Position numbers and translations under genes: made by a program. This document shows, piece after piece, positions 17,651 to 31,061 of a DNA stretch of 32,000 bases. The stretch's first letter is position 1, and each line of letters begins with the position of its first letter. Location: positions 90,001 through 122,000 of IMG/VR virus record IMGVR_UViG_3300035670_013237; one strand, 5' to 3'. The notes beneath the pieces are model-generated. The model did not search any database, was not told the origin of the DNA, and saw only the letters and a list, made by a program, of their open reading frames with translations. The stretch comes from a virus.

Positions 17651-17679
17651 TGCAAACCCGCTCCCGCCTGTGGTACACT
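17651..17679 (+). promoter_or_regulatory. two-box promoter-like element with no ORF behind it
   Basis: TGCAAA (17651-56) - 17 nt - TACACT (17674-79); the spacer is nearly identical to that of the 18016 copy; faces the repeat-rich ORF-poor stretch. Confidence 0.45.
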
Positions 17680-17708
17680 CGTCTCCATGGGGACCGCTCG
17701 CATCGAAA

Positions 17709-17738
17709 TTCTCTCCGCCCTAGGGGAAAGTGAGTCAC
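17709..17738 (+). repeat. composite palindromic motif, copy 1
   Basis: TTCTCTCCGCCCTAGGGGAAAGTGAGTCAC. Confidence 0.75.
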
Positions 17739-17799
17739 CCGCGCCCGCCGGCCTCTCGTGGGCATGAGAGTGGACTTCTGGGGGAGGGTCCTCCGCGCG

Positions 17800-17829
17800 T
17801 TCTCTCCGCCCTTAAGGGAAATGAGTCAC
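17800..17829 (+). repeat. composite palindromic motif, copy 2
   Basis: TTCTCTCCGCCCTTAAGGGAAATGAGTCAC. Confidence 0.75.
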
Positions 17830-17892
17830 TCCCATCCTCAACTCATCACCCGCACCCGGAGCGTGGTATTGTGCTCTTCGTCCCCCGGAGTT

Positions 17893-17923
17893 CGCGTCTC
17901 CGCCCCTGGGGCGAGTGAGTCAC
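17893..17923 (+). repeat. composite palindromic motif, copy 3
   Basis: CGCGTCTCCGCCCCTGGGGCGAGTGAGTCAC. Confidence 0.7.
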
Positions 17924-18015
17924 CCTCTGTCATTCCCCCACTTTTGCACTGAAAATTCGAACAAAATTGTGGGGAAGACCACAAGGACTCATTTTCGACA
18001 AATTTCTCCTGATGG

Positions 18016-18071
18016 TGCAAACCCACTCCCGCCCGTGGTACAAGGGACTCAGGTGGGGACGGTGCCCCGCC
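18016..18071 (+). promoter_or_regulatory. promoter/5'-hairpin cassette
   Basis: TGCAAA (18016-21) - 17 nt - TACAAG (18039-44); hairpin GGTGGGGAC/GTGCCCCGCC to 18071; then GAGGAG and GTG. Confidence 0.55.
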
Positions 18072-18084
18072 GAGGAGAGAGACC

Positions 18085-18441
18085 GTGCACTACGTCGCAG
18101 CATTCAATGAGACCCTCGTGGGTGACAAGAAGTTTAACGACGCCAAGACCCAACTCTGGAACATGGCACACAACCTGGACCGGCTACACAGTGAGTTGAC
18201 TGCGGCATCTGAGACGGTGGAACTTCGGTTCCGGCGGTTCCGGGAATCCTTGGGGGAGGGTCTGCTCCTTGATTCCCCATGGGCGTCTTCGGCCATGATG
18301 GACATGGCGGTGCGGAGGGAAGCATTCGAACAGACGTTGGCGTCCCTTCTCACTCTCGCCCGGATCACCTTGGGGCAGGAGGCGGTGAATGCGTTCCGCC
18401 GAGAGGTGGAGGCGCGGTTCGCTGGGCGCGGGGGCGCTTGA
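18085..18441 (+). CDS. hypothetical protein
   Basis: 118 aa; GTG start 7 nt after GAGGAG; preceded by promoter/hairpin cassette 18016-18071. Confidence 0.6.
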   Translation: MHYVAAFNETLVGDKKFNDAKTQLWNMAHNLDRLHSELTAASETVELRFRRFRESLGEGLLLDSPWASSAMMDMAVRREAFEQTLASLLTLARITLGQEAVNAFRREVEARFAGRGGA

Positions 18442-18443
18442 AA

Positions 18444-18473
18444 TTTTCTCCGCCCTTAAGGGAAGTGAGACAC
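18444..18473 (+). repeat. composite palindromic motif, copy 4
   Basis: TTTTCTCCGCCCTTAAGGGAAGTGAGACAC, starting 3 nt after the stop of ORF 18085..18441. Confidence 0.7.
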
Positions 18474-18489
18474 TTTTTTCCCCGGGCGG

Positions 18490-18545
18490 TGTAAAACGTG
18501 CACCCGGTGTGGTACAAAGAGATTGTGGGGAGTGGGTTCCCCGGA
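18490..18545 (+). promoter_or_regulatory. promoter/5'-hairpin cassette
   Basis: TGTAAA (18490-95) - 17 nt - TACAAA (18513-18); GGGGA/TCCCC hairpin; then GGAGGAG and the ATG at 18557. Confidence 0.5.
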
Positions 18546-18556
18546 GGAGAACGACG

Positions 18557-19102
18557 ATGGAAGAGGAGACCACCCTTGAGCAGGAGCTCGCCGCCGCGAT
18601 CGAGCGCACGACCCGAGCGAGCGGAGACGAGGTCATCATCACTTCCGCGCTCAATGGTGCGCTGGGGTCCGACCGGACTTCGCGGCGTCCGGACATCTCT
18701 GCGATGGAGGACGCATTCTCCCCTGAGGGGATCCCTCTCTTCGAGGTGGGCGGGCGGATCGTGATCGAGCGGTATGCGGTCACGATTCCTGGCCTGCCCT
18801 GGCTCGACACGCAGACCTACGTGGTCCAGGACGTCGATCCCCACTCAGGGGTGATGAAGCTCTGGAATCCCCACCTGCACCAGGCTGCTCTGTCCAACTT
18901 CAAGATGGGGCTGGAGTCGGGCTTCAAGTTTAAGCTCGCCCCCGTCCGTGGTGGCATCGGCAAGCGCAAGCGAGGTCGTCCTGCCAAGAACCCTCCCAAG
19001 TCTCCCGCGCCCGCTCCCACCCCGGGAGAAAAGCGCGGGCGCGGGCGTCCCAAGGGCAGCAAGAATCATGCGAAGGGTGGCTCCTCTACTCCCCGCTCTT
19101 AA
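18557..19102 (+). CDS. hypothetical protein with two C-terminal AT-hook-like RGRP motifs
   Basis: Start trimmed to the ATG at 18557 after GGAGGAG; C-terminus KRKRGRPAKNPPK...KRGRGRPKGSKN. Confidence 0.65.
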   Translation: MEEETTLEQELAAAIERTTRASGDEVIITSALNGALGSDRTSRRPDISAMEDAFSPEGIPLFEVGGRIVIERYAVTIPGLPWLDTQTYVVQDVDPHSGVMKLWNPHLHQAALSNFKMGLESGFKFKLAPVRGGIGKRKRGRPAKNPPKSPAPAPTPGEKRGRGRPKGSKNHAKGGSSTPRS

Positions 19103-19122
19103 CACACAAGGAAGGAAATAAC

Positions 19123-19338
19123 ATGAAGAACATCATCCTGAGTCTCTCCCCCGAGGAGGCAGCGATCCTCCTCTCCGCAGTCGACTACCAGCAGTACACC
19201 ATGCTAGAAGAATGGGGCATCGAGGACACCGTCCCGCCCGGCGTCCCCCCTGAAATCGTGGAGCATGTCGACGTCCTCGAGCACCTGGGCGAGACCCTCG
19301 CGAGCGTCCTGGGTGCCCTCGAGGACGAAGGGGTCTGA
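19123..19338 (+). CDS. hypothetical acidic small protein
   Basis: 71 aa; AAGGAAGGA RBS. Confidence 0.65.
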   Translation: MKNIILSLSPEEAAILLSAVDYQQYTMLEEWGIEDTVPPGVPPEIVEHVDVLEHLGETLASVLGALEDEGV

Positions 19339-19339
19339 C

Positions 19340-19714
19340 ATGGGTCCCACCCTCGTCACGATTGGCTCCGCGCCCCGGGGCGAGCCCACCATCACCGAGG
19401 GTGCACCCGATTGGGAGATGGTGAACAGGCTGGAGTGCCGGGTGTTCAGGGACGCCCTGCTCCGTGGAGTGGGACCTGAGCCTCCTGGGTGCTACCTCAC
19501 GATCCGCGGGGGCCGTGTCGTGGTGATCGTGGAAGAGGAGACGCCGGAGACGCAGCAGTACGTCCAGAACTTGGAGTCCGCCCGGACCACGTGGGATGGG
19601 AGAGCTTTGAAGCACCTGTTCAGGGGACTCCAGCGCATGGACCTGTTGGAGTGGGATCTGTCGAATGAAGAGCACGTCGATGCAGTGCGCCGGTGGTACG
19701 CGCGCAGGGGATAG
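19340..19714 (+). CDS. hypothetical protein
   Basis: Start trimmed to the ATG at 19340 (MGPTLV...), 1 nt after the upstream stop; GAAGGGG RBS. Confidence 0.6.
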   Translation: MGPTLVTIGSAPRGEPTITEGAPDWEMVNRLECRVFRDALLRGVGPEPPGCYLTIRGGRVVVIVEEETPETQQYVQNLESARTTWDGRALKHLFRGLQRMDLLEWDLSNEEHVDAVRRWYARRG

Positions 19715-19720
19715 TGTATA

Positions 19721-20191
19721 ATGTCGAGCATGAATCACAGCCTCACATGGAAGATGGACGGCCCCACCCGCGAGCGGTGCATCGACCTCCTAAAGAACAT
19801 CGACGAGCGCGTCACATCCCGGATCCGCCTCCTCCACGCCATGACCGCCGGAGAGATTGCAGGTGGCCTGTCCCACGCGGCGGCGTGCAGCCTGTGTCCA
19901 GATTATGTGGACAGCCGGAGCGCTCTGGAGCTCATTGGTTCCCTCATTAAAGAGTTCTTGCCTCCGGTCATCTATGAGGACGCTGACACAGGAGCGCTGA
20001 GCATCCAGCCCTACGCCTACGTGGAGGTGGAGTGCTCATGGTGCACGGACGAAGACCTGGAGGAGTCGCTCATCTGTCCCTGCTGTTATGGCGTGCGGAG
20101 GGTAACCAAGAAGGTGGTCCCGGTGGACCTACTAGTCCACGACACGATCGACGTGTTCGTCTGTAGAGAAGTATCCAACAAGAGGAGTTAA
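19721..20191 (+). CDS. hypothetical protein with C-terminal CxxC...CxxC cluster
   Basis: 156 aa; ECSWCTDEDLEESLICPCCYG; its N-terminus is paralogous to the next ORF. Confidence 0.65.
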   Translation: MSSMNHSLTWKMDGPTRERCIDLLKNIDERVTSRIRLLHAMTAGEIAGGLSHAAACSLCPDYVDSRSALELIGSLIKEFLPPVIYEDADTGALSIQPYAYVEVECSWCTDEDLEESLICPCCYGVRRVTKKVVPVDLLVHDTIDVFVCREVSNKRS

Positions 20192-20197
20192 CTAGTC

Positions 20198-20431
20198 ATG
20201 AGTAGTCACACGCGTAGCCTGCCCCCTCGTCCGTCGTCCTTGTCGCATGAGGAGTGTATCAAGCTCCTGGAGCGGATCCAAGAGATCTGCTTCCTCTCCG
20301 TCGAACTAGTCCATGACTCTTCACCTGTCCCCGCGTGGACTCCTGACAAGGTTGCTTCCCAGTCCGCCGCCATCGGTCGGGCCGTCGTAGGCGCTCTCCG
20401 GGAGGGAGGGTTGAGCCCCCATGGCGGCTGA
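20198..20431 (+). CDS. hypothetical protein (N-terminal paralogue of 19721..20191)
   Basis: 77 aa; AGAGGAG RBS; shared MSS..SL...(H/R)E(E/R)CI.LL..I.E segment. Confidence 0.6.
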   Translation: MSSHTRSLPPRPSSLSHEECIKLLERIQEICFLSVELVHDSSPVPAWTPDKVASQSAAIGRAVVGALREGGLSPHGG

Positions 20432-20720
20432 AGTCGGTGTGAAGCACGACGGTGGGAAGCCCGACTACTCCCTGGTGCCCTGGCATGCCCTTGACGAACT
20501 AGTGGAGGTGCTCACCTATGGCGCACGAAAGTACTCTCGGGACAACTGGCAGCACGTGGCACCCTTCAAGGAGCGCTACACGGCTGCCGCCTTTCGGCAC
20601 CTCGTCGCTTATTCCCGTGGAGAGACGGTCGATCCGGAGTCAGGGCTGCACCACCTGGCACACGCGGCCACCTGTCTCTTCTACATGATCGAGATGGACC
20701 TACGGGGAGCCGGGGACTAG
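20421..20720 (+). CDS. DUF5664-like protein (resembles the N-terminal domain of phage dATP/dGTP diphosphohydrolases)
   Basis: 99 aa; KHDGGKPDYSLVPWHALDELVEVLTYGARKYSRDNW ... RHL ... DPESGLHHLAHAA, a pattern I recall for this phage family; GGAGGGAGGG RBS. Confidence 0.6.
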   Translation: MAAEVGVKHDGGKPDYSLVPWHALDELVEVLTYGARKYSRDNWQHVAPFKERYTAAAFRHLVAYSRGETVDPESGLHHLAHAATCLFYMIEMDLRGAGD

Positions 20721-20736
20721 TCGAGCTAGTACGTGC
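20712..20736 (+). repeat. 25-bp direct repeat, right copy
   Basis: Identical to 16911-16935; includes the last two codons and the TAG stop of ORF 20421..20720. Confidence 0.85.
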
Positions 20737-20745
20737 ACATGGGGG

Positions 20746-20774
20746 TGTAAACCCACACGCGGGCGTGTTATATT
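20746..20774 (+). promoter_or_regulatory. two-box promoter-like element
   Basis: GGTGTAAACC: TGTAAA (20746-51) - 17 nt - TATATT (20769-74); an ACTAGT site and an AAGGGG RBS follow. Confidence 0.55.
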
Positions 20775-20797
20775 GAACTAGTAAGGGGTACTCTACC

Positions 20798-20959
20798 ATG
20801 AAGTACTGGTACATCTTCGACTACACACCCAGGGGCGAGCCCATCTGGCGCTCTGCGCAGGCTTATGGATTCCGCCGAAAGAACGGCATGGATCAAGTCT
20901 TCGTCCGGACTACTAGTGGCTTCTGCTGGATCTTCGCAACGCCTGTCAAGGAGGTATGA
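20798..20959 (+). CDS. hypothetical 53-aa protein (below the track cutoff)
   Basis: Hand translation: MKYWYIFDYTPRGEPIWRSAQAYGFRRKNGMDQVFVRTTSGFCWIFATPVKEV*; follows the promoter boxes at 20746-20774 and an AAGGGG RBS; its stop abuts the next ATG. Confidence 0.5.
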   Translation: MKYWYIFDYTPRGEPIWRSAQAYGFRRKNGMDQVFVRTTSGFCWIFATPVKEV

Positions 20960-21229
20960 ATGAATGACATGAACATACGGCTCCTCTTGGAGTCCTGGGG
21001 TGGCAGACCTGGAGAGAGGAGTGAGTTCCCTCTCTACGCCACTCACACCGGCACGACATTTCACATCATCAGGGGCGCCTCACACGAGGAGCGCCTCTCC
21101 CGGTACATCGACTGGGTAGAATCGTTGGGACTAGAGGAGGGAGAGTCGGCAGCACATGTCGAGTCTCTTCACACATGGTTGTCCAGGTGCGCCGCACACG
21201 GCCATCGGGTTCAGTTCGGTTGGGCATAA
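20960..21229 (+). CDS. hypothetical protein
   Basis: 89 aa; AAGGAGG RBS inside the upstream gene end. Confidence 0.65.
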   Translation: MNDMNIRLLLESWGGRPGERSEFPLYATHTGTTFHIIRGASHEERLSRYIDWVESLGLEEGESAAHVESLHTWLSRCAAHGHRVQFGWA

Positions 21230-21231
21230 GA

Positions 21232-21408
21232 ATGGTCATAGGAGACATCATCTCACTCCTGACGATGCGGTATGAATCGCACGTTCAGGCCATGAAGCAC
21301 CACGCAAACAACGGGGACTACGACCGGGCCGCGGACTCCAAGACCCGGGCGGGAGAAGTCTTTAACATTCTGCAAGACCTTAACAAATTTCGGGAGATAT
21401 CGACATGA
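21232..21408 (+). CDS. hypothetical 58-aa protein
   Basis: Start trimmed to the ATG at 21232 (MVIGDIISLL...), 2 nt after the upstream TAA. Confidence 0.5.
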   Translation: MVIGDIISLLTMRYESHVQAMKHHANNGDYDRAADSKTRAGEVFNILQDLNKFREIST

Positions 21409-21758
21409 AGCTCGAGACTGTGGACGGCACAAATTTTAATGAGTTCCTCTCTGCACCGGTCGCCTTCCTCATGGTGGGGAAGACAGATTGTCCAGCTTGC
21501 ATCAAGTGGACGGAGGAGCTGACTTCTTTCTTGGAGACCCAGGACATCCCAGGAGTCCGCTGGGGCAAGCTCGTCCTCGACGGCGGAGGCGTCACTGACT
21601 TCAAGCGCGCACACTCCGGCTGGCTCAAGGACATCTTCGAACTTCCCTACAACACTCTCTGGACCAACGGGACTCAAGTCAAGTCCTGGACAGGCAACAA
21701 CGTCGACCGTCTCACCACACGCCTCAACAATATCCTCGTGGCAACCCCTTCAAACTAA
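21405..21758 (+). CDS. thioredoxin-fold protein
   Basis: 117 aa; FLMVGKTDCPACIKW CxxC active-site-like motif at the position typical of thioredoxins; ATGA overlap. Confidence 0.55.
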   Translation: MKLETVDGTNFNEFLSAPVAFLMVGKTDCPACIKWTEELTSFLETQDIPGVRWGKLVLDGGGVTDFKRAHSGWLKDIFELPYNTLWTNGTQVKSWTGNNVDRLTTRLNNILVATPSN

Positions 21759-21771
21759 AGGGGGAGTCTAA

Positions 21772-21812
21772 CCACTCCAGCCATGCAGGACACCCTCGTT
21801 AGGCTGGAGTGG
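21772..21812 (+). other. 11-bp perfect inverted repeat (hairpin) after the thioredoxin-like gene
   Basis: CCACTCCAGCC (21772-82) / GGCTGGAGTGG (21802-12) with a 19-nt loop; no adjacent U-tract; a T7 run lies about 65 nt further on. Confidence 0.6.
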
Positions 21813-21894
21813 CGCTTGTGATAGAACACCAAGGGGACAAGCTTTCATTGCAAGCCGTGTCATCGTGCTCAACGAACTTTTTTTGCGTGGTTGG

Positions 21895-21954
21895 TGCAAA
21901 CCTTCCGTGAGCCGTGGTACAACTAATTCATCCGGTGGGGATGGTGCCCCACGG
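21895..21954 (+). promoter_or_regulatory. promoter/5'-hairpin cassette
   Basis: TGCAAA (21895-900) - 17 nt - TACAAC (21918-23); hairpin GTGGGG-atggtg-CCCCAC; GGAG RBS. Confidence 0.6.
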
Positions 21955-21969
21955 AAATGGAGAACGACG

Positions 21970-22257
21970 ATGGCTACTACCCAGATCGTTTCTATCAAGG
22001 AAGTTGTTGCCCGTCTCCCCGGCGTGGAGATCCTGTTCTGGAATCGCCTCATCGATTATATGCTGCCGCTCGGTCCACGCTCCACGGGCAAGGTCGACCT
22101 GGACAAGGTTCAAAGGGCCTTGCTGGACCTATCCAATACCTTCGTGGCGAAGGCCGACCGTTATCCCATCGCTGCCGTGATGGCTGAACGCATTGCAAAG
22201 GCTGCGGATGGTTATCCTCCGAGGACGAAGTTCAAGCTGGAGCGCGAACACTGGTGA
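21970..22257 (+). CDS. hypothetical protein
   Basis: Start trimmed to the ATG at 21970 after GGAGAACGACG; cassette 21895-21954 upstream. Confidence 0.65.
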   Translation: MATTQIVSIKEVVARLPGVEILFWNRLIDYMLPLGPRSTGKVDLDKVQRALLDLSNTFVAKADRYPIAAVMAERIAKAADGYPPRTKFKLEREHW

Positions 22258-22275
22258 AAAAAGCTCGGGCGGGGG

Positions 22276-22335
22276 TGCAAACCCCCGCCCCCTTGTGGTA
22301 CAACTGAATCATCCGGTGGGGACGGAATCCCCGCC
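22276..22335 (+). promoter_or_regulatory. promoter/5'-hairpin cassette
   Basis: A-tract, hairpin GGGCGGGGG-tgcaaa-CCCCCGCCC; TGCAAA (22276-81) - 17 nt - TACAAC (22299-304); hairpin GGTGGGGA/TCCCCGCC. Confidence 0.6.
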
Positions 22336-22348
22336 AAGGAGAAAGACG

Positions 22349-22549
22349 ATGGCACGTTTCTACACGAACAAGGTCCTCGAGGCGGTCGAGGAGGGCACGC
22401 TCGACGCTCAGGTCGCACTGCGAATGGCGCTCTGCTGGATGTCGGAGGATGACGTCGCTGGAATGGTCGAGGCTGAGCTCGAAGACCTCTTTGAGTACGA
22501 GGATGAGGGCGAAGATGAGGGGGAGGAGGGCGAAGATGACCTTCTGTGA
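22349..22549 (+). CDS. hypothetical acidic protein
   Basis: Start trimmed to the ATG at 22349 after GGAGAAAGACG; Glu/Asp-rich C-terminal tail. Confidence 0.65.
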   Translation: MARFYTNKVLEAVEEGTLDAQVALRMALCWMSEDDVAGMVEAELEDLFEYEDEGEDEGEEGEDDLL

Positions 22550-22697
22550 ACTAGAGCTCAACTATATTCTCGAGGCTGTCAAGTTCTTCCAGGAGAAGGG
22601 CATCCCCAACCTGCCGCCGACCGACCGTGCAGTGTACACCGCGGAGGTTGAGGGCATCATCGAGAGGATCGAGTTCGAACTGGATGGCGAGGCGTAA
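22536..22697 (+). CDS. hypothetical 53-aa protein
   Basis: The ATG at 22536 is preceded by GGAGGAGGG and overlaps the upstream gene end by 14 nt. Confidence 0.5.
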   Translation: MTFCELELNYILEAVKFFQEKGIPNLPPTDRAVYTAEVEGIIERIEFELDGEA

Positions 22698-22714
22698 AAA
22701 AGTTCGCCCCGGGG

Positions 22715-22774
22715 TGCAAACCCCAAGCGGGCCGTGGTACAACTAATTCATCCGGTGGGGATGGTGCCCCACGG
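22715..22774 (+). promoter_or_regulatory. promoter/5'-hairpin cassette
   Basis: TGCAAA (22715-20) - 17 nt - TACAAC (22738-43); downstream hairpin to 22774. Confidence 0.6.
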
Positions 22775-22784
22775 TGGAGGAAAT

Positions 22785-23033
22785 ATGGCTATCCCTCACG
22801 TTAGCAAGATCGTTGACAAGCTTCCCGACCCCGTCCGCGACGACTTCTGGGGCCACCTGGGGGACCTCATCTCGAGCCAGGAGGCAGACACCTTGGTTGC
22901 CCGGTGGTCCACCATCGAGGAGGTCTTGGTGGATGGATTGGAGTATACCCACAAGGACCTGGAGGGCCTGGGCATCGACGTGGCTCGCTACTCGGCGGCG
23001 GGCAAGGTCTCTCTCGTCCGCGTCTTTCTCTGA
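22785..23033 (+). CDS. hypothetical protein
   Basis: The ATG at 22785 follows GGAGGAAAT; cassette 22715-22774 upstream. Confidence 0.65.
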   Translation: MAIPHVSKIVDKLPDPVRDDFWGHLGDLISSQEADTLVARWSTIEEVLVDGLEYTHKDLEGLGIDVARYSAAGKVSLVRVFL

Positions 23034-23051
23034 AAAAAGTTGAGCCGGGGG

Positions 23052-23110
23052 TGCAAACCCCCGGACATCCATGGTACAACAGATTCAAGAGGTGGGGATG
23101 GTACCCCACC
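23052..23110 (+). promoter_or_regulatory. promoter/5'-hairpin cassette
   Basis: AAAAAAGTT, hairpin CCGGGGG-tgcaaa-CCCCCGG; TGCAAA (23052-57) - 17 nt - TACAAC (23075-80); hairpin GGTGGGG-atggta-CCCCACC (23091-110). Confidence 0.6.
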
Positions 23111-23125
23111 TGCGGAGGAACGAAG

Positions 23126-25580: not shown

Positions 25581-25598
25581 AAAAAGTTGGGTTGGGGG

Positions 25599-25656: not shown

Positions 25657-25669
25657 GGGGAGAACGAAG

Positions 25670-25822
25670 ATGCGAGCTTACATCATCCAGTGGATTAACA
25701 AGCGCGACCACGGTACGTCAATGATTTTCGCCCGCACGGCCGGTGCCGCGGTTGAGGAGCTCCGCGCCCGGGAAGGTAACAACACCGTCGCCATCACAGT
25801 GACCCCCAAGCTTCAAAAGTAA
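25670..25822 (+). CDS. hypothetical 50-aa protein
   Basis: The ATG at 25670 follows GGGGAGAACGAAG; cassette 25599-25656 upstream. Confidence 0.5.
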   Translation: MRAYIIQWINKRDHGTSMIFARTAGAAVEELRAREGNNTVAITVTPKLQK

Positions 25823-25836
25823 ATTGCACAAGGTGG

Positions 25837-25895
25837 TGCAAACCACCGCCAACCTATGGTACAACAGATTCAAGAGGTGGGGATGGTACCCCACC
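25837..25895 (+). promoter_or_regulatory. promoter/5'-hairpin cassette
   Basis: Hairpin GGTGG-tgcaaa-CCACC; TGCAAA (25837-42) - 17 nt - TACAAC (25860-65); hairpin GGTGGGGATGGTACCCCACC (25876-95). Confidence 0.6.
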
Positions 25896-25910
25896 GGATG
25901 GAGACTGACC

Positions 25911-26192
25911 ATGCAGATTACGCTTACTCTGGACTCCCTCTCCAATGCCAAGGACCTCATCACCGACGGTGCCTATAAGAATCTGACTGCATACAAAGCC
26001 TTCTTCAAGGCCTCGGCCCTCCCTTACGGCCTAACCGTCAAGAAGGTCATCACGGACCGGGAAAACGACCTCATCCAGGGGGTTGTGGAGTACACTGACC
26101 TTGAAAAGGTCAAGGAGTGGATGCTTTCCGACTCCCCGGAATTGTCCCGCCAGGATGTTGATGACCTCATCCAAGAGGCCCTCTCCACCTGA
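25911..26192 (+). CDS. hypothetical protein
   Basis: The ATG at 25911 follows GGAGACTGACC; begins MQITLTLDSL. Confidence 0.65.
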   Translation: MQITLTLDSLSNAKDLITDGAYKNLTAYKAFFKASALPYGLTVKKVITDRENDLIQGVVEYTDLEKVKEWMLSDSPELSRQDVDDLIQEALST

Positions 26193-26215
26193 ACCTAAAA
26201 AAGTTGGGTTGGGGG

Positions 26216-26274
26216 TGCAAACCCCCGGCCCCTTGTGGTACAACAGATTCAAGAGGTGGGGATGGTACCCCACC
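26216..26274 (+). promoter_or_regulatory. promoter/5'-hairpin cassette
   Basis: TGCAAA (26216-21) - 17 nt - TACAAC (26239-44); hairpin GGTGGGGATGGTACCCCACC (26255-74). Confidence 0.6.
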
Positions 26275-26287
26275 CAGGAGAATGACG

Positions 26288-26545
26288 ATGCAACTCAAGA
26301 CCGTTGAACTTCAGCCCACCCTCCTTGACTCCATCATCGCACCCCTCACTCCTGAACAGCGCGACCAGGTCTACGTCGACCTTGGCGAATACTTTACCTG
26401 GGGCGATGCAGAGTATACCCTCTTTCCTATGCGTGAAGTGGTCGCGCTCCTGGACCAGACCTTCGGCCACCAGTACCTCCTCGCCCGCGGCATCGACATC
26501 GACATCCTCGAGGGGCGCGGCGGGTTGGTCGCGGTCAAGGGTTGA
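26288..26545 (+). CDS. hypothetical protein
   Basis: The ATG at 26288 follows GGAGAATGACG, the same spacing as in sibling cassettes. Confidence 0.65.
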   Translation: MQLKTVELQPTLLDSIIAPLTPEQRDQVYVDLGEYFTWGDAEYTLFPMREVVALLDQTFGHQYLLARGIDIDILEGRGGLVAVKG

Positions 26546-26576
26546 AAAAAGTTCGTCCGGGGGTGCAAACCCCCGG
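26546..26576 (+). promoter_or_regulatory. degenerate cassette (A-tract and first hairpin only)
   Basis: AAAAAAGTT plus CCGGGGG-tgcaaa-CCCCCGG are present, but there is no TAnnnn box 17 nt downstream and no second hairpin. Confidence 0.4.
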
Positions 26577-26632
26577 CTGCAGGAGCCCGATGAGCAGAAT
26601 GCCCTCTCTTCACCCCACAAAGGTAGTTACCT

Positions 26633-26920
26633 ATGTCACACTCATTCCGGATCGGAGACATGGTTCGGCTTCACAGGGATCGCAACCACGACAAGTTTGG
26701 GTACAGAGGACAAAACGTCTGGAAGTATGAAGATGGGTGGATGCAACAGACCGCCAGCCAAGTGCGCTATGATGAAATCTGTATCGTCCTGGGTGAGGTA
26801 TACCTCGAGGCGCCCTGGCCCGGGCGACGTGGGAAGTCTGAGGCGTCAGGCACTTGGTACCAAGTACACAATTCTAGCGCCACGGGATGGCTCCACAAAA
26901 ACGCTCTAGAACCGGTGTAA
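26633..26920 (+). CDS. SH3-like GD-motif family protein (plus-strand member)
   Basis: 95 aa; FRIGDMVRL and SATGWLHKN motifs; preceded only by a degenerate cassette. Confidence 0.65.
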   Translation: MSHSFRIGDMVRLHRDRNHDKFGYRGQNVWKYEDGWMQQTASQVRYDEICIVLGEVYLEAPWPGRRGKSEASGTWYQVHNSSATGWLHKNALEPV

Positions 26921-26975
26921 AGTGCCGCTCAGCCGTGGTACAACAGATTCATCCGGTGGGGATGGTACCCCACGG
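26916..26975 (+). promoter_or_regulatory. promoter/5'-hairpin cassette
   Basis: TGTAAA (26916-21, containing the TAA stop of the upstream ORF) - 17 nt - TACAAC (26939-44); downstream hairpin to 26975. Confidence 0.55.
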
Positions 26976-26988
26976 AGTGGAGGCTAAA

Positions 26989-27117
26989 ATGACAATCTTG
27001 ACTACGAAAAAGAAAAGCCTGTGCCCCGTTTGCGGGGAAAAGTCATACAAGATCGGTTTCACCAAAGACGGGCGGGTAATCCGCTCGTGTAACGACGCAA
27101 CGAACGAACGTAAATAA
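26989..27117 (+). CDS. 42-aa putative zinc-ribbon protein
   Basis: The ATG at 26989 follows GGAGGCTAAA; MTILTTKKKSLCPVCGEKSYKIGFTKDGRVIRSCND. Confidence 0.45.
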   Translation: MTILTTKKKSLCPVCGEKSYKIGFTKDGRVIRSCNDATNERK

Positions 27118-27130
27118 GTTCGGGTGGGGG

Positions 27131-27190
27131 TGCAAACCCCCACCTCTTTGTGGTACAACTGATTCAAGAGGTGGGGATGGTGCCCCACGG
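27131..27190 (+). promoter_or_regulatory. promoter/5'-hairpin cassette
   Basis: Hairpin GGGTGGGGG-tgcaaa-CCCCCACC; TGCAAA (27131-36) - 17 nt - TACAAC (27154-59); hairpin GTGGGG-atggtg-CCCCAC. Confidence 0.6.
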
Positions 27191-27204
27191 AATGGAGAGC
27201 AAAG

Positions 27205-27489
27205 ATGCACTTCTTCTTTTCGCGTCACGCTGAAGTTTCTGGTAGCTTCCTTGTCGATGACCTCTCTGATGAGGTGTTCAACATCATCCGCCGCAAGGCG
27301 GAGTGGCAGCCAGTCGAGGTCAACATCGATCCTGAGAAGGGATACGACGGGCTCGAGTGGCGCTTCAAGGACGCGAAGGGTAGGCTCTACAACGTCTATT
27401 CCAGGTGGGGTCAACCTCGAGTTGGTGGATGGCGGACCACCACGCCCCAGGACGTGAAGAACTTCGAAGCCTGGGTTCTTAGCCTGTGA
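27205..27489 (+). CDS. hypothetical protein (paralogue of 24192..24467)
   Basis: 94 aa; GGAGAGCAAAG RBS; conserved C-terminal half ending FEAWVLSL. Confidence 0.7.
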   Translation: MHFFFSRHAEVSGSFLVDDLSDEVFNIIRRKAEWQPVEVNIDPEKGYDGLEWRFKDAKGRLYNVYSRWGQPRVGGWRTTTPQDVKNFEAWVLSL

Positions 27490-27507
27490 AAAAAGTTGGG
27501 CCGGGGG

Positions 27508-27567
27508 TGCAAACCCCCGGACCCTTGTGGTACAACAAATTCATCCGGCGGGGATGGTACCCCGCGG
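27508..27567 (+). promoter_or_regulatory. promoter/5'-hairpin cassette
   Basis: TGCAAA (27508-13) - 17 nt - TACAAC (27531-36); hairpin GGCGGGG-atggta-CCCCGC. Confidence 0.6.
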
Positions 27568-27581
27568 AGTGGAGAATGACG

Positions 27582-27788
27582 ATGACCGATATCAACTGCA
27601 TTCGCCGTGACAACTGTGACTCCTGCAACAGCCGCCGCGTTCCGGTGGCGGTCTTCCACCACCACGGCACCCCGGTGCTCAACCAGTGCCGCTCGTGCAA
27701 CCCGAGCGTGTTCGAGGCCCTCGCCCGCCGGGACATCGACGCCTGGCTGAAGGGCGAGACCAGTGAAAGCAACTGGTTTCACGGATAA
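27582..27788 (+). CDS. Cys-rich small protein (putative zinc-binding)
   Basis: The ATG at 27582 follows GGAGAATGACG; CIRRDNCDSC ... CRSC pattern. Confidence 0.6.
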   Translation: MTDINCIRRDNCDSCNSRRVPVAVFHHHGTPVLNQCRSCNPSVFEALARRDIDAWLKGETSESNWFHG

Positions 27789-27802
27789 ATTTACCAGGAC
27801 AG

Positions 27803-27861
27803 TGCAAAGCACCTGCCCAGCTTGATATAACAAATTCATGAGGCGGGGACGGATCCCCGCC
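27803..27861 (+). promoter_or_regulatory. promoter/5'-hairpin cassette (RadA-like gene)
   Basis: TGCAAA (27803-08) - 17 nt - TATAAC (27826-31); hairpin GGCGGGGA-cgga-TCCCCGCC. Confidence 0.55.
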
Positions 27862-27883
27862 GGCCTCTAGGAGTCAATAGACC

Positions 27884-28645
27884 ATGTCTTCGATGAACCT
27901 CAATGTCGGTATCAAGAACCTCCGCAACGGCACCAACATCATGGAAATCAAGGTGCCCGAGCAGCTCCGGACCCGGATGCCCACGGGCATCGAGTGGTTC
28001 GACGACGCCATCGGTGGCACAGGCTTCGTCCCCTCCTGCGTCATGATGCTCACCGGTACCCCCGGTGCGGGCAAGACGACGATGCTCCTGCAGCTCGCGG
28101 ATTCCATCACATCGGCAGGCCACATCTGCCTCTACAACACCGGCGAGGAGAGCCTCTACCAGGTGCGCATGGTCACCGAGCGCCTCAAGCTGAAGAGTGG
28201 CTTCGTGGCAGGTCAGGACACGATGGTGCAGGACCTCCTCGCTCATGCGGACGCCCTCCGCGAGGCGAACCCTGGCAAGCAGGTCTTCATCCTCCAGGAC
28301 TCCCTCCAAACCCTCGACGACGGAAAGTGGAAGGATGGCCCCAACAGCGTCACCCCGCTCCGTGTCGTCGAGCGCCTCACGGACTGGGCGAAGACGAACT
28401 TTACGAACGTCATCTTCATCGGCCAGGTCAATAAGTCGGGCGAGTTTGCAGGCAAGAACGGCATTCTCCATGCGGTCGACGTCCGTGGTCGCATCTTCCT
28501 CGACACCGACAAGAAGAGTGAGACCTTTGGCGAGCGCATCTTCGAGGTTACCAAGAACCGGTTCGGTTGTTCAGGCCGCGCCTATGTCCTCGGCCTCAGC
28601 GACAAGGGCCTCTATGAGAAGGGCTCCCTCAGCCAGCTCTCGTAA
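27884..28645 (+). CDS. RadA/Sms-like RecA-superfamily ATPase (core domain only)
   Basis: 253 aa; TGIEWFDDAIGG, Walker A GTPGAGKTT, Walker B VFILQDS, and the RadA-signature KNRFG; no N-terminal zinc finger or C-terminal Lon-like domain. Confidence 0.75.
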   Translation: MSSMNLNVGIKNLRNGTNIMEIKVPEQLRTRMPTGIEWFDDAIGGTGFVPSCVMMLTGTPGAGKTTMLLQLADSITSAGHICLYNTGEESLYQVRMVTERLKLKSGFVAGQDTMVQDLLAHADALREANPGKQVFILQDSLQTLDDGKWKDGPNSVTPLRVVERLTDWAKTNFTNVIFIGQVNKSGEFAGKNGILHAVDVRGRIFLDTDKKSETFGERIFEVTKNRFGCSGRAYVLGLSDKGLYEKGSLSQLS

Positions 28646-28663
28646 AAAAAAGCTGGGCCGGGG

Positions 28664-28692
28664 TGCAAAGCCCCGGCCCGGCATGGTACTCT
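28664..28692 (+). promoter_or_regulatory. two-box promoter-like element (AAA+ ATPase gene)
   Basis: A-tract, hairpin GGGCCGGGG-tgcaaa-GCCCCGGCCC; TGCAAA (28664-69) - 17 nt - TACTCT (28687-92); no second hairpin. Confidence 0.5.
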
Positions 28693-28722
28693 GTTCTTAC
28701 TTCACCACCACGGAAGGAAACC

Positions 28723-29856
28723 ATGAACAACCCAATGAGCATCTCACGCTTCGTAGAAATTGCCCCTCTCCTCCCCCGGGACACCTCGATCCTCATCCGC
28801 GGCCCTCACGGCATCGGCAAGTCCCAGGTCGTCCGCCAGGTCTCGGCTGCCATCGGCGCCAAGGAGGGCATCAAGAACTTCCCGGTCATCGATCGCCGGC
28901 TCTCCCAGATGACGGAGGGCGACATGATTGGTCTCCCATCCACCGACGGCAACGTCACCCGCTTCAACCCACCCGACTGGTACAAGGCGGCCTGCGACGC
29001 CCCCGTCACCCTCTTCCTGGACGAGCTCAACCGCGCCACCCACGAGGTGATGCAGGCTGCGTTCCAGGTCGTCCTGGACCGGGAGCTGAATGGATGGAAA
29101 CTGCATCCCCAGACCCGGGTGTTTGCTGCGGTCAATGCCTCGGCCGAGTACACGGTGAATGAGATGGACCCGGCCCTTCTCGATCGTTTCTGGGCGATTG
29201 ATTTGACCCCCACCACCGAGGATTGGCTCAACTGGGCCCGGGGTCCGGGTGCCATCCACCCCACAATCACGGACTTCATCTCCTCGGCCGACAAGTGGCT
29301 CGATCCCCCGAAGCACACCGAGGCAGGCTCGGTCCACCCAAGCCGCCGCTCCTGGGAGCGTCTCTCCAAGTGTCTCATGGCCACGGGGGTCGCGGACAAT
29401 CCGGAGGACTCCGCCTTCTATTCCCTCTCTCTCGGCTACATTGGTGTGGATGCTTCGATCGCCTTCTACGACTTCGCCAAGTCGGTTGACAACCGGGTGA
29501 CGGGCGAGGACGTGGTGGAGCGGTACCCCAAGTTCAAGAAGAAAGTCGAGAAGCTCTCCCAAGACCGGCTCAACGGCCTGGTCGAAAAGGTGGCCGAGTA
29601 CGTCACGAAGAACCTGTCGACCTTGTCCGACAAGCAGGGCAAGAACCTCCAGGACTTCATCAAGGACATCCCAGGCGAGCTCCGGGTCTCGTGCTGGTCC
29701 AAGCTCACGGCCCACGGACTCGATAAGCTGGAGCTCGCGAAGTCCGTGCACAAGTGGTGTGCCGCTGCGATCCTGGATGTGTTCGGGGTGCCCATGGGCG
29801 AGAAGGGCATCGGGGTCACCCCCAACATTCCTGAGATGTTGAAGAACAAAAAGTGA
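28723..29856 (+). CDS. AAA+ ATPase, MoxR/CobS-like (AAA_5-type)
   Basis: Start trimmed to the ATG at 28723 after GGAAGGAAACC; Walker A GPHGIGKS, Walker B/sensor LFLDELNRA. Confidence 0.7.
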   Translation: MNNPMSISRFVEIAPLLPRDTSILIRGPHGIGKSQVVRQVSAAIGAKEGIKNFPVIDRRLSQMTEGDMIGLPSTDGNVTRFNPPDWYKAACDAPVTLFLDELNRATHEVMQAAFQVVLDRELNGWKLHPQTRVFAAVNASAEYTVNEMDPALLDRFWAIDLTPTTEDWLNWARGPGAIHPTITDFISSADKWLDPPKHTEAGSVHPSRRSWERLSKCLMATGVADNPEDSAFYSLSLGYIGVDASIAFYDFAKSVDNRVTGEDVVERYPKFKKKVEKLSQDRLNGLVEKVAEYVTKNLSTLSDKQGKNLQDFIKDIPGELRVSCWSKLTAHGLDKLELAKSVHKWCAAAILDVFGVPMGEKGIGVTPNIPEMLKNKK

Positions 29857-29886
29857 GGTGGGCAGGCCTCGGGCCTAGATATTAAC

Positions 29887-30450
29887 ATGGCAACACACTT
29901 CATCGAAGAACGCTGGATTGAACGGGCCGAAGCCCGGCGCGAGAAGGCTCGTCGGGCAGGCCGAGCGCCTGCCAAGGTGCAGTCACAGTGGGAGGACGAT
30001 CTTCGATATATCAAGGGACTCCGCGTGGTGGTGGAGTGGTGCACCGCACGCTCACTGACCGTGGTCTTCAAGAACCAGCATGGAGGGATCTTCTTCCCCG
30101 CACAGGACAAGATCACAATCAGCGAGCGGGCGGTGCCCAAGCTTCAGCTCCACTATCTCCTCCATGAGTGTGGTCATGCACTCATTGGCCCGAAACAGCC
30201 CGGCGGCCGCTTCAGCATGGGCTACGGGGTGAAGAACGATCGGGCCCTCCGCTCCCCCCAGCACAAGCTAGACGTCATCGAGGAAGAGTTCGAGGCATGG
30301 CACCGGGGCTGGAAGCTGGGCCGGAAGCTGGGGGTCTTCATCCGGTCGGATCGTGCATGCTACGACGACACGCGGGTAAAGATGTTGAGGACTTACATTG
30401 ATTGGGCTTCCAAGTCCTGGGGATCCTCGACCACAATTGACCCTGAGTGA
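29887..30450 (+). CDS. putative HExxH zinc metallopeptidase-like protein
   Basis: 187 aa; HYLLHECGHALIG resembles ImmA/IrrE-type (M78-like) active sites; weak RBS. Confidence 0.45.
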   Translation: MATHFIEERWIERAEARREKARRAGRAPAKVQSQWEDDLRYIKGLRVVVEWCTARSLTVVFKNQHGGIFFPAQDKITISERAVPKLQLHYLLHECGHALIGPKQPGGRFSMGYGVKNDRALRSPQHKLDVIEEEFEAWHRGWKLGRKLGVFIRSDRACYDDTRVKMLRTYIDWASKSWGSSTTIDPE

Positions 30451-30553
30451 GGCTCAGATAAAAGAGACAAAATGAGATAGGTTTGCTCCCATGGAATTTA
30501 CGAGAGCCCATCTCAGCCCACCCTGCCAACCGAAAAAAAAGTTTGTGGAGGTG

Positions 30554-30582
30554 TGCAAACTTCCACAGGCACATTGTAGAGT
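30554..30582 (+). promoter_or_regulatory. two-box promoter-like element
   Basis: A8 tract, hairpin TGTGGAgG-tgtgcaaac-tTCCACA; TGCAAA (30554-59) - 17 nt - TAGAGT (30577-82); the ATG lies 6 nt downstream. Confidence 0.5.
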
Positions 30583-30588
30583 TGGACC

Positions 30589-30990
30589 ATGAAAGGACGT
30601 AAGGTGACATGGAAGGCAGGCGAGGACCCGGCGGTTGCCGGACGCCCTGCACCTCCCCCACGGTACAGGGGAGCGCAGAGCACCTCTCACCTGGAGAAGA
30701 TCGCTGACCAGTTGTACCCAGGAGCGCTCCTTGCCTGCGAACGAGAACTATACGTGGACACGTACCACACGAATCTTCCCCATCCGCTCCTTGTCACGAG
30801 CGATCCAGCCTGGGCACAGGCGGCGCCCACTGTCGCTCATCGGGGTGACCTTGTCATCTATGCCGGCACTGTACGTTACGAGGAGGAGACTTCAAAGAGT
30901 TCTCTGCGTGTCGTACGTCACACGGTCATCTGCCGGGGACAACGATACATCCTCAGCACTCTCGACGGAGTGAAGCCTGTCGACGATTAA
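30589..30990 (+). CDS. hypothetical protein with C-terminal SH3-like GD motif, possibly leaderless
   Basis: 133 aa; HRGDLVIYAG motif; the ATG lies 6 nt after the TAGAGT box of the element at 30554-30582. Confidence 0.55.
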   Translation: MKGRKVTWKAGEDPAVAGRPAPPPRYRGAQSTSHLEKIADQLYPGALLACERELYVDTYHTNLPHPLLVTSDPAWAQAAPTVAHRGDLVIYAGTVRYEEETSKSSLRVVRHTVICRGQRYILSTLDGVKPVDD

Positions 30991-31003
30991 ATTCGTGAAT
31001 GTG

Positions 31004-31061
31004 TGCAAATAGCCCGCCAATCTTGGTACAACAGAACTGTGGGGTGGGAGAGTGCCCGCCC
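31004..31061 (+). promoter_or_regulatory. promoter/5'-hairpin cassette
   Basis: TGCAAA (31004-09) - 17 nt - TACAAC (31027-32); hairpin GGGTGGG-agagtg-CCCGCCC. Confidence 0.55.

Follow-up and report, generated by a model that had tools for sequence, protein, structure and literature searches.

A likely promoter with sigma70-family geometry and an unusual upstream box in portable cassettes of uncultivated jumbo phages

Introduction

The window investigated in this study, a stretch of 32,000 nucleotides of viral DNA (positions 90,001 to 122,000 of the IMG/VR record IMGVR_UViG_3300035670_013237), contains numerous copies of a two-box element, in which a hexamer of the sequence TG(C/T)AAA is followed at a distance of 17 base pairs (bp) by a second box starting with TA(C/T). 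On the plus strand, this element is found upstream of many small genes as part of a cassette that also encompasses potential hairpins and a Shine-Dalgarno (SD) sequence. In an initial sequence-only reading, it was proposed to constitute a promoter with a -35-like and an extended -10 box, whose architecture would parallel the promoter-early stem-loop (PeSL) cassettes of T4-type phages. A protein identical to PurA of the window is encoded on a contig of 271,347 bp, which identifies the window as part of an uncultivated jumbo phage. Nucleotide searches of 50,697 phage records with the cassette array did not reveal any match and tblastn searches of phage records with MoxR, PurA and GroEL retrieved distant matches only, indicating that there is no cultured relative. 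A DNA pattern of 14 specified bases produced single chance matches only in IMG/VR and a 21-base pattern was found neither in IMG/VR nor in GTDB genomes but recovered a close relative from metagenomes. The 2025 'moraphage' lineage is a different group.

Results

Organization of the two-box element and its cassettes

At the locus, an array of plus-strand genes in the region 17000-32000 (55-63% GC) carries a cassette before almost every gene, while an array of minus-strand genes in the region 1-10000 (43-47% GC) consists of packed or overlapping genes with few internal promoters (TGTAAA...TATnnT), some of which are leaderless. The pattern TG(C/T)AAA-N17-TA(C/T) is found 27 times in the window, compared to a mean of 0.28 and a maximum of 3 matches in dinucleotide-preserving shuffles. 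The plus strand contains 22 strict copies, all located within 17651-31029. The initial reading had counted 23, one of which, with its box at 30554 and the spacer CTTCCACAGGCACATTG, carries TAGAGT as second box and thus falls outside the strict TA(C/T) definition, and it had not listed five further copies on the minus strand, in the AT-richer left part of the window (boxes at 9690, 6529, 4507, 3298 and 644). Beyond the end of the window, the array continues with copies at window-equivalent positions of about 32303, 33720 and 34009 (contig L128). The proposed fixed spacing was confirmed: the distance of 17 bp is the same in 23 of 23 plus-strand copies and, in a test anchored on the downstream half of the element, all 18 plus-strand TGNTAYAA[ACT] sites have TGYAAA exactly 20 nucleotides upstream of the TG.

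Conservation extends to positions that are not forced by the search pattern, as evident from 52 unique copies of the window and close relatives. Among these, a G directly precedes the box in 96%, the TG of the extended -10 is found in 92-94% and the third base of TGG in 75%, and an A is located seven nucleotides after the second box, at the predicted start, in 79% of the copies. With this conserved A assigned as +1, the layout comprises an A/T tract at about -54 to -46, the box G-TG(C/T)AAA at -36 to -30, the 17-bp spacer and an extended -10 of the sequence TGG-TA(C/T)AAC at -15 to -7, with TG at -15/-14, the hexamer at -12 to -7 and the A of (T)TCA as start. The A/T tract, which appears as AAAAAAGTT, TTTTTT or AAATTT, is an A- or T-tract at -22 to -11 from the box in 19 of the 23 window copies. 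As copies and relatives without the first hairpin retain the tract at an unchanged distance, we assign it to the promoter, as a UP-element-like component, and not to the tail of a terminator.

Direct reading of the copies reproduces the order of parts that had initially been described. The stop codon of the preceding gene is followed by AAAAAAGTT, a GC-rich hairpin (hairpin 1) with the box as loop, TGGTACAAC, ATTCA, a second hairpin (hairpin 2), GGAG and ATG. In 19 of 23 copies, the end of hairpin 2 is located 53-60 nucleotides after the start of the box. SD and ATG follow 59-81 nucleotides after the start of the box, equivalent to 0-46 nucleotides after the predicted +1, with about 7 nucleotides between the end of the SD and the ATG. 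A cassette spans about 95 nucleotides and between 21.8 and 28.7 kb, in the GC-rich array of small genes, there is about one per 350-bp gene. In the cassette dissected as type example (23031-23128, plus strand), whose sequence was read directly, the stop codon TGA (23031-23033) leads straight into the A-tract AAAAAAGTT (23033-23041), and the strands of hairpin 1, CCGGGGG (23045-23051) and CCCCCGG (23058-23064), enclose the box TGCAAA (23052-23057). Further downstream, the extended -10 TGG-TACAAC (23072-23080) precedes the predicted +1 A at 23087, hairpin 2 (GGTGGGG-ATGGTA-CCCCACC, 23091-23110), the SD GGAGG (23114-23118) and the ATG at 23126. Each cassette contains the heptamer ATGGTAC twice: the first copy (here at 23071-23077) spans the extended -10 (cATGGTACaac), and the second (23098-23104) supplies the loop and the closing bases of hairpin 2 (GGGGATGGTACCCC).

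Other full cassettes on the plus strand are located at 22257-22348 (ATG at 22349; hairpin 1 of 9 bp, -24.8 kcal/mol), 22696-22784 (ATG 22785), 23383-23479 (ATG 23480), 23656-23744 (ATG 23745), 24102-24191 (ATG 24192; hairpin 1 of -26.2 kcal/mol), 25580-25669 (ATG 25670; TACAAA and a different hairpin 2 stem, GGTGGCC/GGCCACC), 26197-26287 (ATG 26288), 27112-27204 (ATG 27205) and 27489-27581 (ATG 27582; compensatory C-G pair in hairpin 2, GGCGGGG/CCCCGC). Hairpin 1 is weak in the cassettes at 21878-21969 (ATG 21970; T-tract, TACAAC and hairpin 2) and 24700-24793 (ATG 24794; TGTAAA, TACAAC and hairpin 2) and short, with the stem GGTGG/CCACC, at 25815-25910 (ATG 25911). It is missing at 18000-18084 (GTG 18085; AAATTT tract, TGCAAA, TACAAG, hairpin 2 and SD), at 25079-25163 (ATG 25164), where the stem of hairpin 2 is replaced by GGGGTGGC/GCCACCCC, at 26897-26988 (ATG 26989), where the TGTAAA box contains the stop codon of the upstream gene, and at 30989-31073 (ATG 31074; TACAAC and a variant hairpin 2). 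Two further plus-strand cassettes combine a TTTTTT tract, TGTAAA, TACAAA, the variant hairpin 2 GGGGA/TCCCC and an SD (18474-18556, ATG 18557), and an AAATTT tract, TGA-TATAAC and hairpin 2 with the stem GGCGGGG/CCCCGCC (27787-27883, ATG 27884 of a KaiC/DnaB-like ATPase gene).

Among the remaining plus-strand copies, a weak one at 17651-17679 (TGCAAA-N17-TGG-TACACT) is devoid of hairpins, whereas short leaders without hairpin 2 follow TGTAAA-N17-TGT-TATATT at 20746-20797 (ATG 20798) and an A8 tract, a 12-bp hairpin 1 and TGCAAA-N17-TGG-TACTCT at 28644-28722 (ATG 28723 of a MoxR-type AAA ATPase gene). Three copies of the window are leaderless, each of their ATGs opening an open reading frame (ORF). 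One of them, on the plus strand at 30533-30591, consists of an A8 tract, hairpin 1 and TGCAAA-N17-TAGAGT, from which six nucleotides (tggacc) lead to the ATG at 30589 of a 133-residue ORF. The other two are located on the minus strand at 9653-9690 (TGTAAA-N17-TGG-TATTTT, 6 nucleotides, ATG 9655, ORF 9485-9655) and 4470-4507 (TGTAAA-N17-TGA-TATGAT, 6 nucleotides, ATG 4472, ORF 4293-4472). The same strand contains copies at 6501-6529 (TGTAAA-N17-TGG-TATCAT) and 3270-3298 (TGTAAA-N17-TATTCT), and a match at 619-644 (TGCAAA-N17-TACTTT) inside an ORF for a methyltransferase-like protein of 379 residues, which may either be a chance match or an internal promoter. Finally, there are two truncated cassettes on the plus strand, one at 26546-26577 with A-tract, hairpin 1 and TGCAAA box but without -10 and hairpin 2, the other at 24466-24485, where only the remnant TAAAAAGTTCGCGGGGC is left, without box or -10.

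Conservation of the element in related phages

Relatives of the phage were gathered with the sequence of its MoxR-type ATPase (28723-29856), which has led to 30 further IMG/VR loci at 41-70% identity, on contigs of up to 340 kb with a GC content of 42-60%. Relatives at 53-70% ATPase identity share both boxes with their 17-bp spacing. In relatives with 61-70% ATPase identity, the element reads gTGCAAAGT, about 14 variable bases and (t)G(g)TATAnT. The -10 hexamer of relatives is TATAnT or TAAGAT, with a T at the last position in 84% of the copies. In 48 of 94 unique copies from relatives, an ATG is found exactly 6 nucleotides after the -10 hexamer, as in the typical sequence TATACT-aagacc-ATG, a leaderless geometry that fixes the predicted start at an offset of +35 from the box. 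In a test anchored only on TAYNNT-N6-ATG and an ORF of at least 40 codons, TGYAAA was found at a spacer of 17 in 52 of 122 sites and near-variants (TGCAAG, TGCAAT, TGTAAT) at others, and no recurrent hexamer of the TTGACA type emerged among these 122 sites. In four relatives (L141, L147, L149 and L150), the genes following the box at a distance of 40-50 nucleotides encode transfer RNAs (tRNAs), which points to a signal for transcription and not for translation.

These observations bear on a reading of the cassettes as elements acting only on the RNA level, be it as terminator, ribonuclease processing site or translational operator, with the boxes as hairpin parts. Such elements would be in accordance with two GC-rich hairpins per cassette, with a first box that makes a GNRA-type loop (U-GCAA-A or U-GUAA-A) and with the few hairpin 1 copies that appear terminator-like in a scan. 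However, boxes and 17-bp spacing are intact in window copies without strong hairpin 1, in cassettes lacking either of the hairpins and in about 100 copies of relatives without any hairpin, about half of the relatives' copies carry an ATG at the predicted +1, tRNA genes follow others and the sense strand of hairpin 1 lacks a T-run, and we consider this explanation highly improbable.

The downstream half of the element conforms to an extended -10 of the sigma70 family, including TAnnnT, TGn and a predicted start 6-8 nucleotides downstream. In comparison to extended -10 sigma70 promoters with UP elements, it shares TG at -15/-14, the hexamer at -12 to -7, the 17-bp spacer, a start 7 nucleotides after the -10 and an A/T tract in the -57 to -47 zone, but differs in the last -10 base, which is C in the cassette subclass, and in a non-TTGACA -35 that is yet more conserved than usual -35 elements. 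A TTGACA-like hexamer is not present at this position and the box is specific to the clade. The element would thus represent a promoter for a multisubunit RNA polymerase of the bacterial type with a sigma factor of the sigma70 family, and the conserved boxes of relatives, the leaderless ATGs and the tRNA geometry support the two-site promoter that had been proposed in the sequence-only reading. Together, these features indicate that the element is very probably a real transcription promoter that is used across a group of uncultivated giant phages.

Promoters of other polymerases offer a less satisfactory description. Single-subunit enzymes of the T7 type use contiguous promoters of about 20 bp and the virion polymerase of phage N4 reads DNA hairpins. 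Recognition by a phage polymerase unrelated to sigma70, either single-subunit and T7/N4-like or multisubunit and phiKZ/AR9-like, would suit the location of the element in a jumbo phage, the presence of N4 gp24-like relatives of the MoxR ATPase and the exposure of the box in the loop of hairpin 1, which is loosely reminiscent of N4 early promoters. Conversely, the promoters of phiKZ and AR9 are single contiguous AT-rich elements (PMC5312081), while the element contains two blocks 14-17 variable bp apart, which together with TGn-TATAnT and the A/T tract constitute a signature of the sigma70 family, hairpin 1 is absent from half of the copies and there is no polymerase gene in the 54 kb examined around the window, about a fifth of the genome. 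We thus regard a phage polymerase as unlikely. Sigma54 promoters are defined by the -24/-12 consensus TGGCAC-N5-TTGCA and TGGTAC-N5-ATTCA in the cassette could be viewed as such an element, as the block TGGTACAACAGATTCA has the correct GG-N10 spacing and agrees with the consensus in 9 of 11 positions. Its probability is nevertheless close to negligible, with TC in the cassettes instead of the near-invariant GC at -12, TATAnT and no GG...GC in the copies of relatives, a conserved box 17 bp upstream that has no role in sigma54 promoters and no enhancer-binding protein detected among the proteins scanned around the window.

Two promoter subclasses

The identity of the last -10 base is related to the type of predicted 5'-end. 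For this comparison, the second box was relaxed to TAnnnn, which resulted in 261 unique copies distributed over some 30 contigs. Among copies with a T at this position, 117 have ATG or GTG at +1 and 5 a 5' hairpin, whereas with a C (TAYAAC) a 5' hairpin leader is found in 36 copies and 5 are leaderless. The association has a Fisher p-value of 2.6e-25 overall, in a sample that includes non-independent paralogous copies and was classified crudely, and it is also found in distant relatives alone (112:2 vs 3:4, p = 6e-5). The link of -7T to leaderless and of -7C to hairpin-leader copies is thus present in separate lineages. The absence of the final -10 T, which had been attributed to most copies, holds for the cassettes and is restricted to the hairpin-leader subclass, relatives mostly containing T. 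Both subclasses could be separate regulatory or temporal classes.

Leaderless messenger RNAs (mRNAs) are common in Actinobacteria and Deinococcus-Thermus and occur in some phages (PMC4633059, PMC3160421). The succession of TAnnnT, 6 nucleotides and start codon in three window copies and about half of the copies of relatives resembles promoters of such mRNAs, with the difference that the promoter family described here would drive leadered mRNAs too.

Properties of the two hairpins

Hairpin 2 is found in 19 of 23 copies, at predicted positions of about +4 to +25. Its fold has a z-score below -2 relative to shuffled sequences in 36 of 42 copies, and alternative stems preserve pairing, as in GGGGTGGC/GCCACCCC, GGTGGCC/GGCCACC, ACGGTAA/TTACCGT and GGCGGGG/CCCCGCC. 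In a structure-aware alignment, which had itself been adjusted to the model, pairing extends to 86.9% of the cells, 12 cells carry changes on both sides and none of 500 shuffles attained the resulting covariation score. With 22 G.U pairs contributing, the sense strand folds more stably in 25 copies and the antisense strand in 13 (p = 0.017). In two distant relatives (L138 at 7961 and L144 at 8077), a shared gene has a 5' hairpin in both cases, with stems unrelated to each other. A covariance model of the segment containing -10 and hairpin 2 identified copies only in the phage of the window and in close relatives and none in distant ones; a scan of the window with Rfam did not find any family at gathering score and a tRNA scan of the window did not detect any tRNA. 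We infer from these sequence patterns that hairpin 2 is an RNA element at the 5'-end of the mRNA, which is selected on the sense strand.

The leaders of E. coli ompA and of T7 phi10 contain 5'-terminal stem-loops that act as stabilizers. In the cassettes, a stable hairpin would similarly be located no more than about 4 nucleotides from the predicted 5'-end and be followed by a single-stranded SD, with the difference that one hairpin sequence is reused before about 19 different genes. A transcript starting at +1 would open with a stable stem-loop about 4 nucleotides from its 5'-end, which would protect the 34-46-nucleotide leader from 5'-end-dependent decay. By analogy to ompA and phi10, hairpin 2 is thus most probably a stabilizer against such decay.

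Compared to its counterpart, hairpin 1, which had been described as a part of the typical full cassette, is present but optional: only 12 of 23 copies have a strong version (at least 7 bp and -16 kcal/mol or better), 5 have a weak one and the other 6 lack it. Its loop, U-G(C/U)AA-A, corresponds to a GNRA tetraloop. There are 25 distinct stems with many compensatory variants, including complete replacements such as GGGGAAGG/CCTTCCCC. A T6 run is located 3-6 nucleotides past the hairpin on the opposite strand and the combination of GC hairpin and T-run on the transcribed strand that defines an intrinsic terminator is not found. In analogy to PeSLs, and as the least certain part of our proposal, hairpin 1 would attenuate or insulate against upstream read-through or stabilize the 3'-end of the upstream RNA, and it may thus function as read-through attenuator or 3'-end protector. 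A role as antisense terminator, with the hairpin followed by AACTTTTTT on the minus strand, or as an element acting on the DNA level is also conceivable.

Gene shuffling at the cassettes

The close relative Ga0214923_10002456 (L121, L122), a metagenome contig of 24.6 kb, is 75-95% identical in blocks. Proteins encoded between the cassettes are 81-100% identical to their counterparts in this contig but the gene order differs. In the relative, the pair 24794-25580 follows the MoxR gene, 27884-28645 is relocated and 26633-26920 and 26989-27117 have exchanged their positions. Of 23 ends of nucleotide homology blocks, 19 are located in cassette intervals, which account for 25% of the region (binomial p = 1.3e-8). 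Two of the block ends (26577 and 26595) are found at the truncated cassette of 26546-26577, pointing to a recombination scar. Separately, the block 5800-9043 of L121 is inverted relative to the cassette array when compared to 18389-20720 of the window, with divergent transcription of block and array in the relative and co-directional transcription in the window.

Near-identical cassettes flanking single genes would act as recombination joints because such repeats enclose one gene each, and genes equipped with their own promoter would be gained, lost and reordered at the cassettes, as described for T4-type PeSLs. Alternatively, the cassettes might be selfish repeats or targets of a site-specific recombinase or a dimeric DNA-binding regulator, with inverted repeats as protein sites and an incidental likeness to promoters, a view that draws on the high similarity of cassettes at gene boundaries, the breakpoints within them, the two ATGGTAC sites in each and the speculation of the PeSL authors on a protein binding GGGG...CCCC (PMC2839356). 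Yet the stems of both hairpins vary with compensation, which preserves structure and not sequence, the conserved parts are the two boxes that persist in relatives without inverted repeats, and homologous recombination between repeats of 75-95 nucleotides would suffice for shuffling, making this alternative very unlikely.

Comparison to PeSL cassettes

PeSL cassettes were described in the T4-like phages RB49/phi1, PST and nt-1 (Arbiol et al., 2010, PMC2839356; Comeau et al., 2014, PMC4122927). They combine a GN-loop-CN stem-loop, an AT-rich region and a -35/N17/-10 promoter and are associated with ORFans in plastic regions (PMC2839356, PMC4122927). Their stem-loops terminate in reporter assays (PMC2839356), and for PeSLs terminator activity and the formation of mini-circles are experimentally established. 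The cassettes of the window similarly unite a G-run/C-run stem-loop, an AT-rich tract, an N17 two-box promoter, an SD and an ATG within one intergenic unit. There is one cassette per small gene in a plastic region, nearly all of these genes being ORFan-like in lacking family matches, and close relatives differ by gain, loss and reordering of genes, the junctions being located in the cassettes. The parallel to PeSLs drawn in the initial reading is thus supported by shared parts, by the assignment of one cassette to each small gene and by shuffling with block ends in cassettes. Differences concern the order of parts, as hairpin 1 overlaps with the -35 box instead of preceding the AT-rich tract, a second conserved hairpin at the transcript 5'-end, the sequence of the boxes (TGYAAA/TAYAAC compared to TTGACA/TATAAT-like in PeSLs) and the carrier, an uncultivated jumbo phage instead of a T4-like myovirus, with no T4 core genes seen in the 54 kb examined. 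The element resembles PeSLs but carries its own unusual upstream box, and our literature search did not find a description of a phage promoter of the TGCAAA type.

Recognition of the upstream box

The box G-TG-Y-AAA is near-invariant across phages of 42-60% GC, which raises the question of how it is read. A plain early promoter, in which the primary sigma70 of the host reads both boxes unaided and TGYAAA is a tolerated -35, constitutes a considerable possibility, albeit one that falls short of being probable. The exact geometry (-35, 17 bp, TGn, -10 and +1 at 7 nucleotides), the A/T tract at the position of an UP element and the location in front of early-looking small genes and tRNAs would all be expected for such promoters. 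It is at variance with the near-invariance of a non-TTGACA box in these phages, as a merely tolerated -35 would drift, with the C at -7 in most cassette copies, which is a poor fit to primary sigma, and with the coexistence in the window of canonical TTGAAC/TATAAT promoters. The latter are found in a divergent pair at 12206-12271, outside the motif family, with TTGAAC-17-TGgTATAAT directly upstream of purA (12206-12234, minus strand) and TTCACA-16-TACAAT on the plus strand (12244-12271).

Nine relatives (L148 and L151-L158) encode a sigma70-family protein of about 290 residues, mostly a few kb upstream of the ATPase gene (L148:3248-4126, L152:6608-7504, L154:7381-8217 and L151:6529-7416, and also in L153 and L155-L158). 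The gene is translationally coupled to its upstream gene (..aacTGATG). Its product contains regions 2, 3 and 4.1, and a TGA terminates the ORF precisely where the region 4.2 recognition helix would begin. Frames downstream of the ORF do not continue the protein, and of the 50 positions in the Pfam profile of region 4 only 1-22 are matched, with a score below threshold. Contigs of up to 370 kb encode more than 120 homologues (262-314 residues), which contain Sigma70_r2 with or without r3 but never r4. Loci with this gene use promoters of the sequence GTG(C/T)AA(G/A)-N17-TAAGAT-tagatc-ATG. There is no separate ORF for a sigma region 4.2 in the relatives' loci examined, the 271-kb contig of the window carries none of the at least 120 homologues listed, in a comparison where about 54 kb of the contig were covered, and neither a MotA nor an AsiA homologue was detected among the proteins scanned around the window.

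As the relatives encode a sigma70-like protein without region 4.2, a specificity factor that is encoded or modified by the phage gains plausibility; at the same time, a protein lacking the helix that reads the -35 cannot alone explain a conserved -35 box, which speaks in favour of the host factor. Known systems illustrate how such a box could be read. T4 middle promoters combine a MotA box (TGCTTtA, centred at -30, with a 12-bp gap) with a sigma70 -10, while AsiA remodels region 4 of sigma, and SigO-RsoA of B. subtilis is a two-subunit sigma factor. Both resemble the element described here in the combination of a normal -10 with an upstream box not typical for sigma70, which suggests that the reader of the box may not be sigma region 4.2. 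The sigma70-like protein of the relatives, which ends before the region 4.2 helix, adds to this resemblance. The box described here is distinguished from T4 middle promoters by its location at -35 with 17 bp instead of -30 with a 12-bp gap. We regard a split or appropriated sigma, where the phage sigma would read TGn and -10 and another phage protein or a remodelled host region 4 the box, as a tentative possibility. More generally, a scenario where the host primary sigma reads the box and the truncated phage sigma serves a -10-only class appears about as probable to us as one where a reader specified by the phage operates together with the truncated sigma.

Neighbouring genes

The full-length PurA-type adenylosuccinate synthetase at 10926-12182 (minus strand) carries a GDEGKG motif and is 44-56% identical to bacterial PurA. 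The idea of a PurZ and a Z-genome was discarded based on this motif and on the stated identity to cellular PurA, compared to about 28% to PurZ-like phage proteins, and the closest named cellular matches to PurA, from Chloroflexota/Anaerolineae metagenome-assembled genomes (MAGs) at about 54% identity, are too weak to assign a host. In addition to PurA, the phage encodes a nucleotide-pool enzyme of the MazG/MazZ type, a 99-residue protein (20421-20720, plus strand) that matches the N-terminal domain of dATP/dGTP diphosphohydrolases (PF18909, E = 3e-33). Three successive paralogues of about 285-300 residues on the plus strand (13428-14285, 14289-15140 and 15144-16043) share the glycine-rich domain PF21722 and show weak matches to tail-fibre-like PHROGs; none is preceded by a two-box promoter.

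A KaiC/DnaB-like P-loop ATPase (27884-28645) and the MoxR-type AAA ATPase (28723-29856) adjoin a DUF2201 metallopeptidase/VWA-like protein (L128:4385-5731). The gene of the latter is located just past the window and the pairing of MoxR and VWA forms a conserved anchor that retrieves the whole phage clade. On the same contig, about 5-10 kb beyond window position 1, genes encode an IF-1/eIF-1A-like protein (L133:15782-16168, minus strand), GroEL (17539-19137, minus strand; about 48% identical to bacterial GroEL), thioredoxin (12018-12350, plus strand) and an UvdE endonuclease (19434-20366, minus strand). The IF-1-like gene is of note in a phage with predicted use of leaderless mRNAs. A 21-base pattern of the leaderless promoter is found in only three MAG contigs, L165 (RGVZ01000341.1), L166 and L167, which carry the unrelated labels 'bacterium WB9_2_064', 'Proteobacteria bacterium' and 'Bdellovibrionota bacterium' and one of which contains four copies in 3.3 kb. 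These contigs are probably mis-binned phage DNA.

Discussion

By combining motif statistics, conservation in relatives, leaderless and tRNA geometry, hairpin covariation and cassette breakpoints, we arrive at a description of the two-box element as a promoter with sigma70-family geometry of an uncultivated jumbo-phage clade, located in a gene-mobile cassette whose copies serve as recombination joints, which we consider likely as a whole. In this arrangement, the stop codon of the preceding gene would run into the A-tract, followed by an optional hairpin 1, the promoter, hairpin 2, GGAG and ATG, with predicted initiation at +1 and presumably early timing. Beyond the initial reading, the sequence comparison offers a promoter model for the entire clade, a link between the last -10 base and leaderless or hairpin-leader starts and, as a lead towards the reader of the box, a sigma-like protein devoid of region 4.2.

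Several observations weigh against this description. In either register, as TGCAAA or as GTGCAA, the box agrees with TTGACA in 3 of 6 positions, and the last -10 base is C in 69% of the cassette copies at a position, -7, where T is normally critical. The coexistence of canonical promoters in the window suggests that the motif family may need a reader other than the host primary sigma. Many cassette copies are paralogues homogenized by recombination, which inflates apparent conservation and Fisher statistics, and any exchange of whole genes would in part be expected to place block ends in intergenic DNA. With respect to hairpin 1, only 2-4 T and no T-run follow on the sense strand, a scan for terminator-like structures was passed by only 2 copies on the plus and 3 on the minus strand, and a preference for either strand was not found once the loop was neutralized.

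If correct, our description would provide a sharply defined promoter model for a clade without cultured member, from which transcription units, leaderless genes and temporal classes could be predicted from sequence. It raises the question of how an invariant non-TTGACA -35 box is read when the sigma-like protein of the clade lacks the helix that reads the -35, and why the last -10 base switches with the type of 5'-end. As a compact unit of UP-like tract, promoter, 5' stabilizer and SD, the cassette might also be of use as an expression module, given a host or a compatible polymerase. The organization of one gene with one portable promoter cassette, together with its shuffling, would extend beyond T4-like phages and supports portable cassettes as a general route by which large phages may trade small accessory genes.

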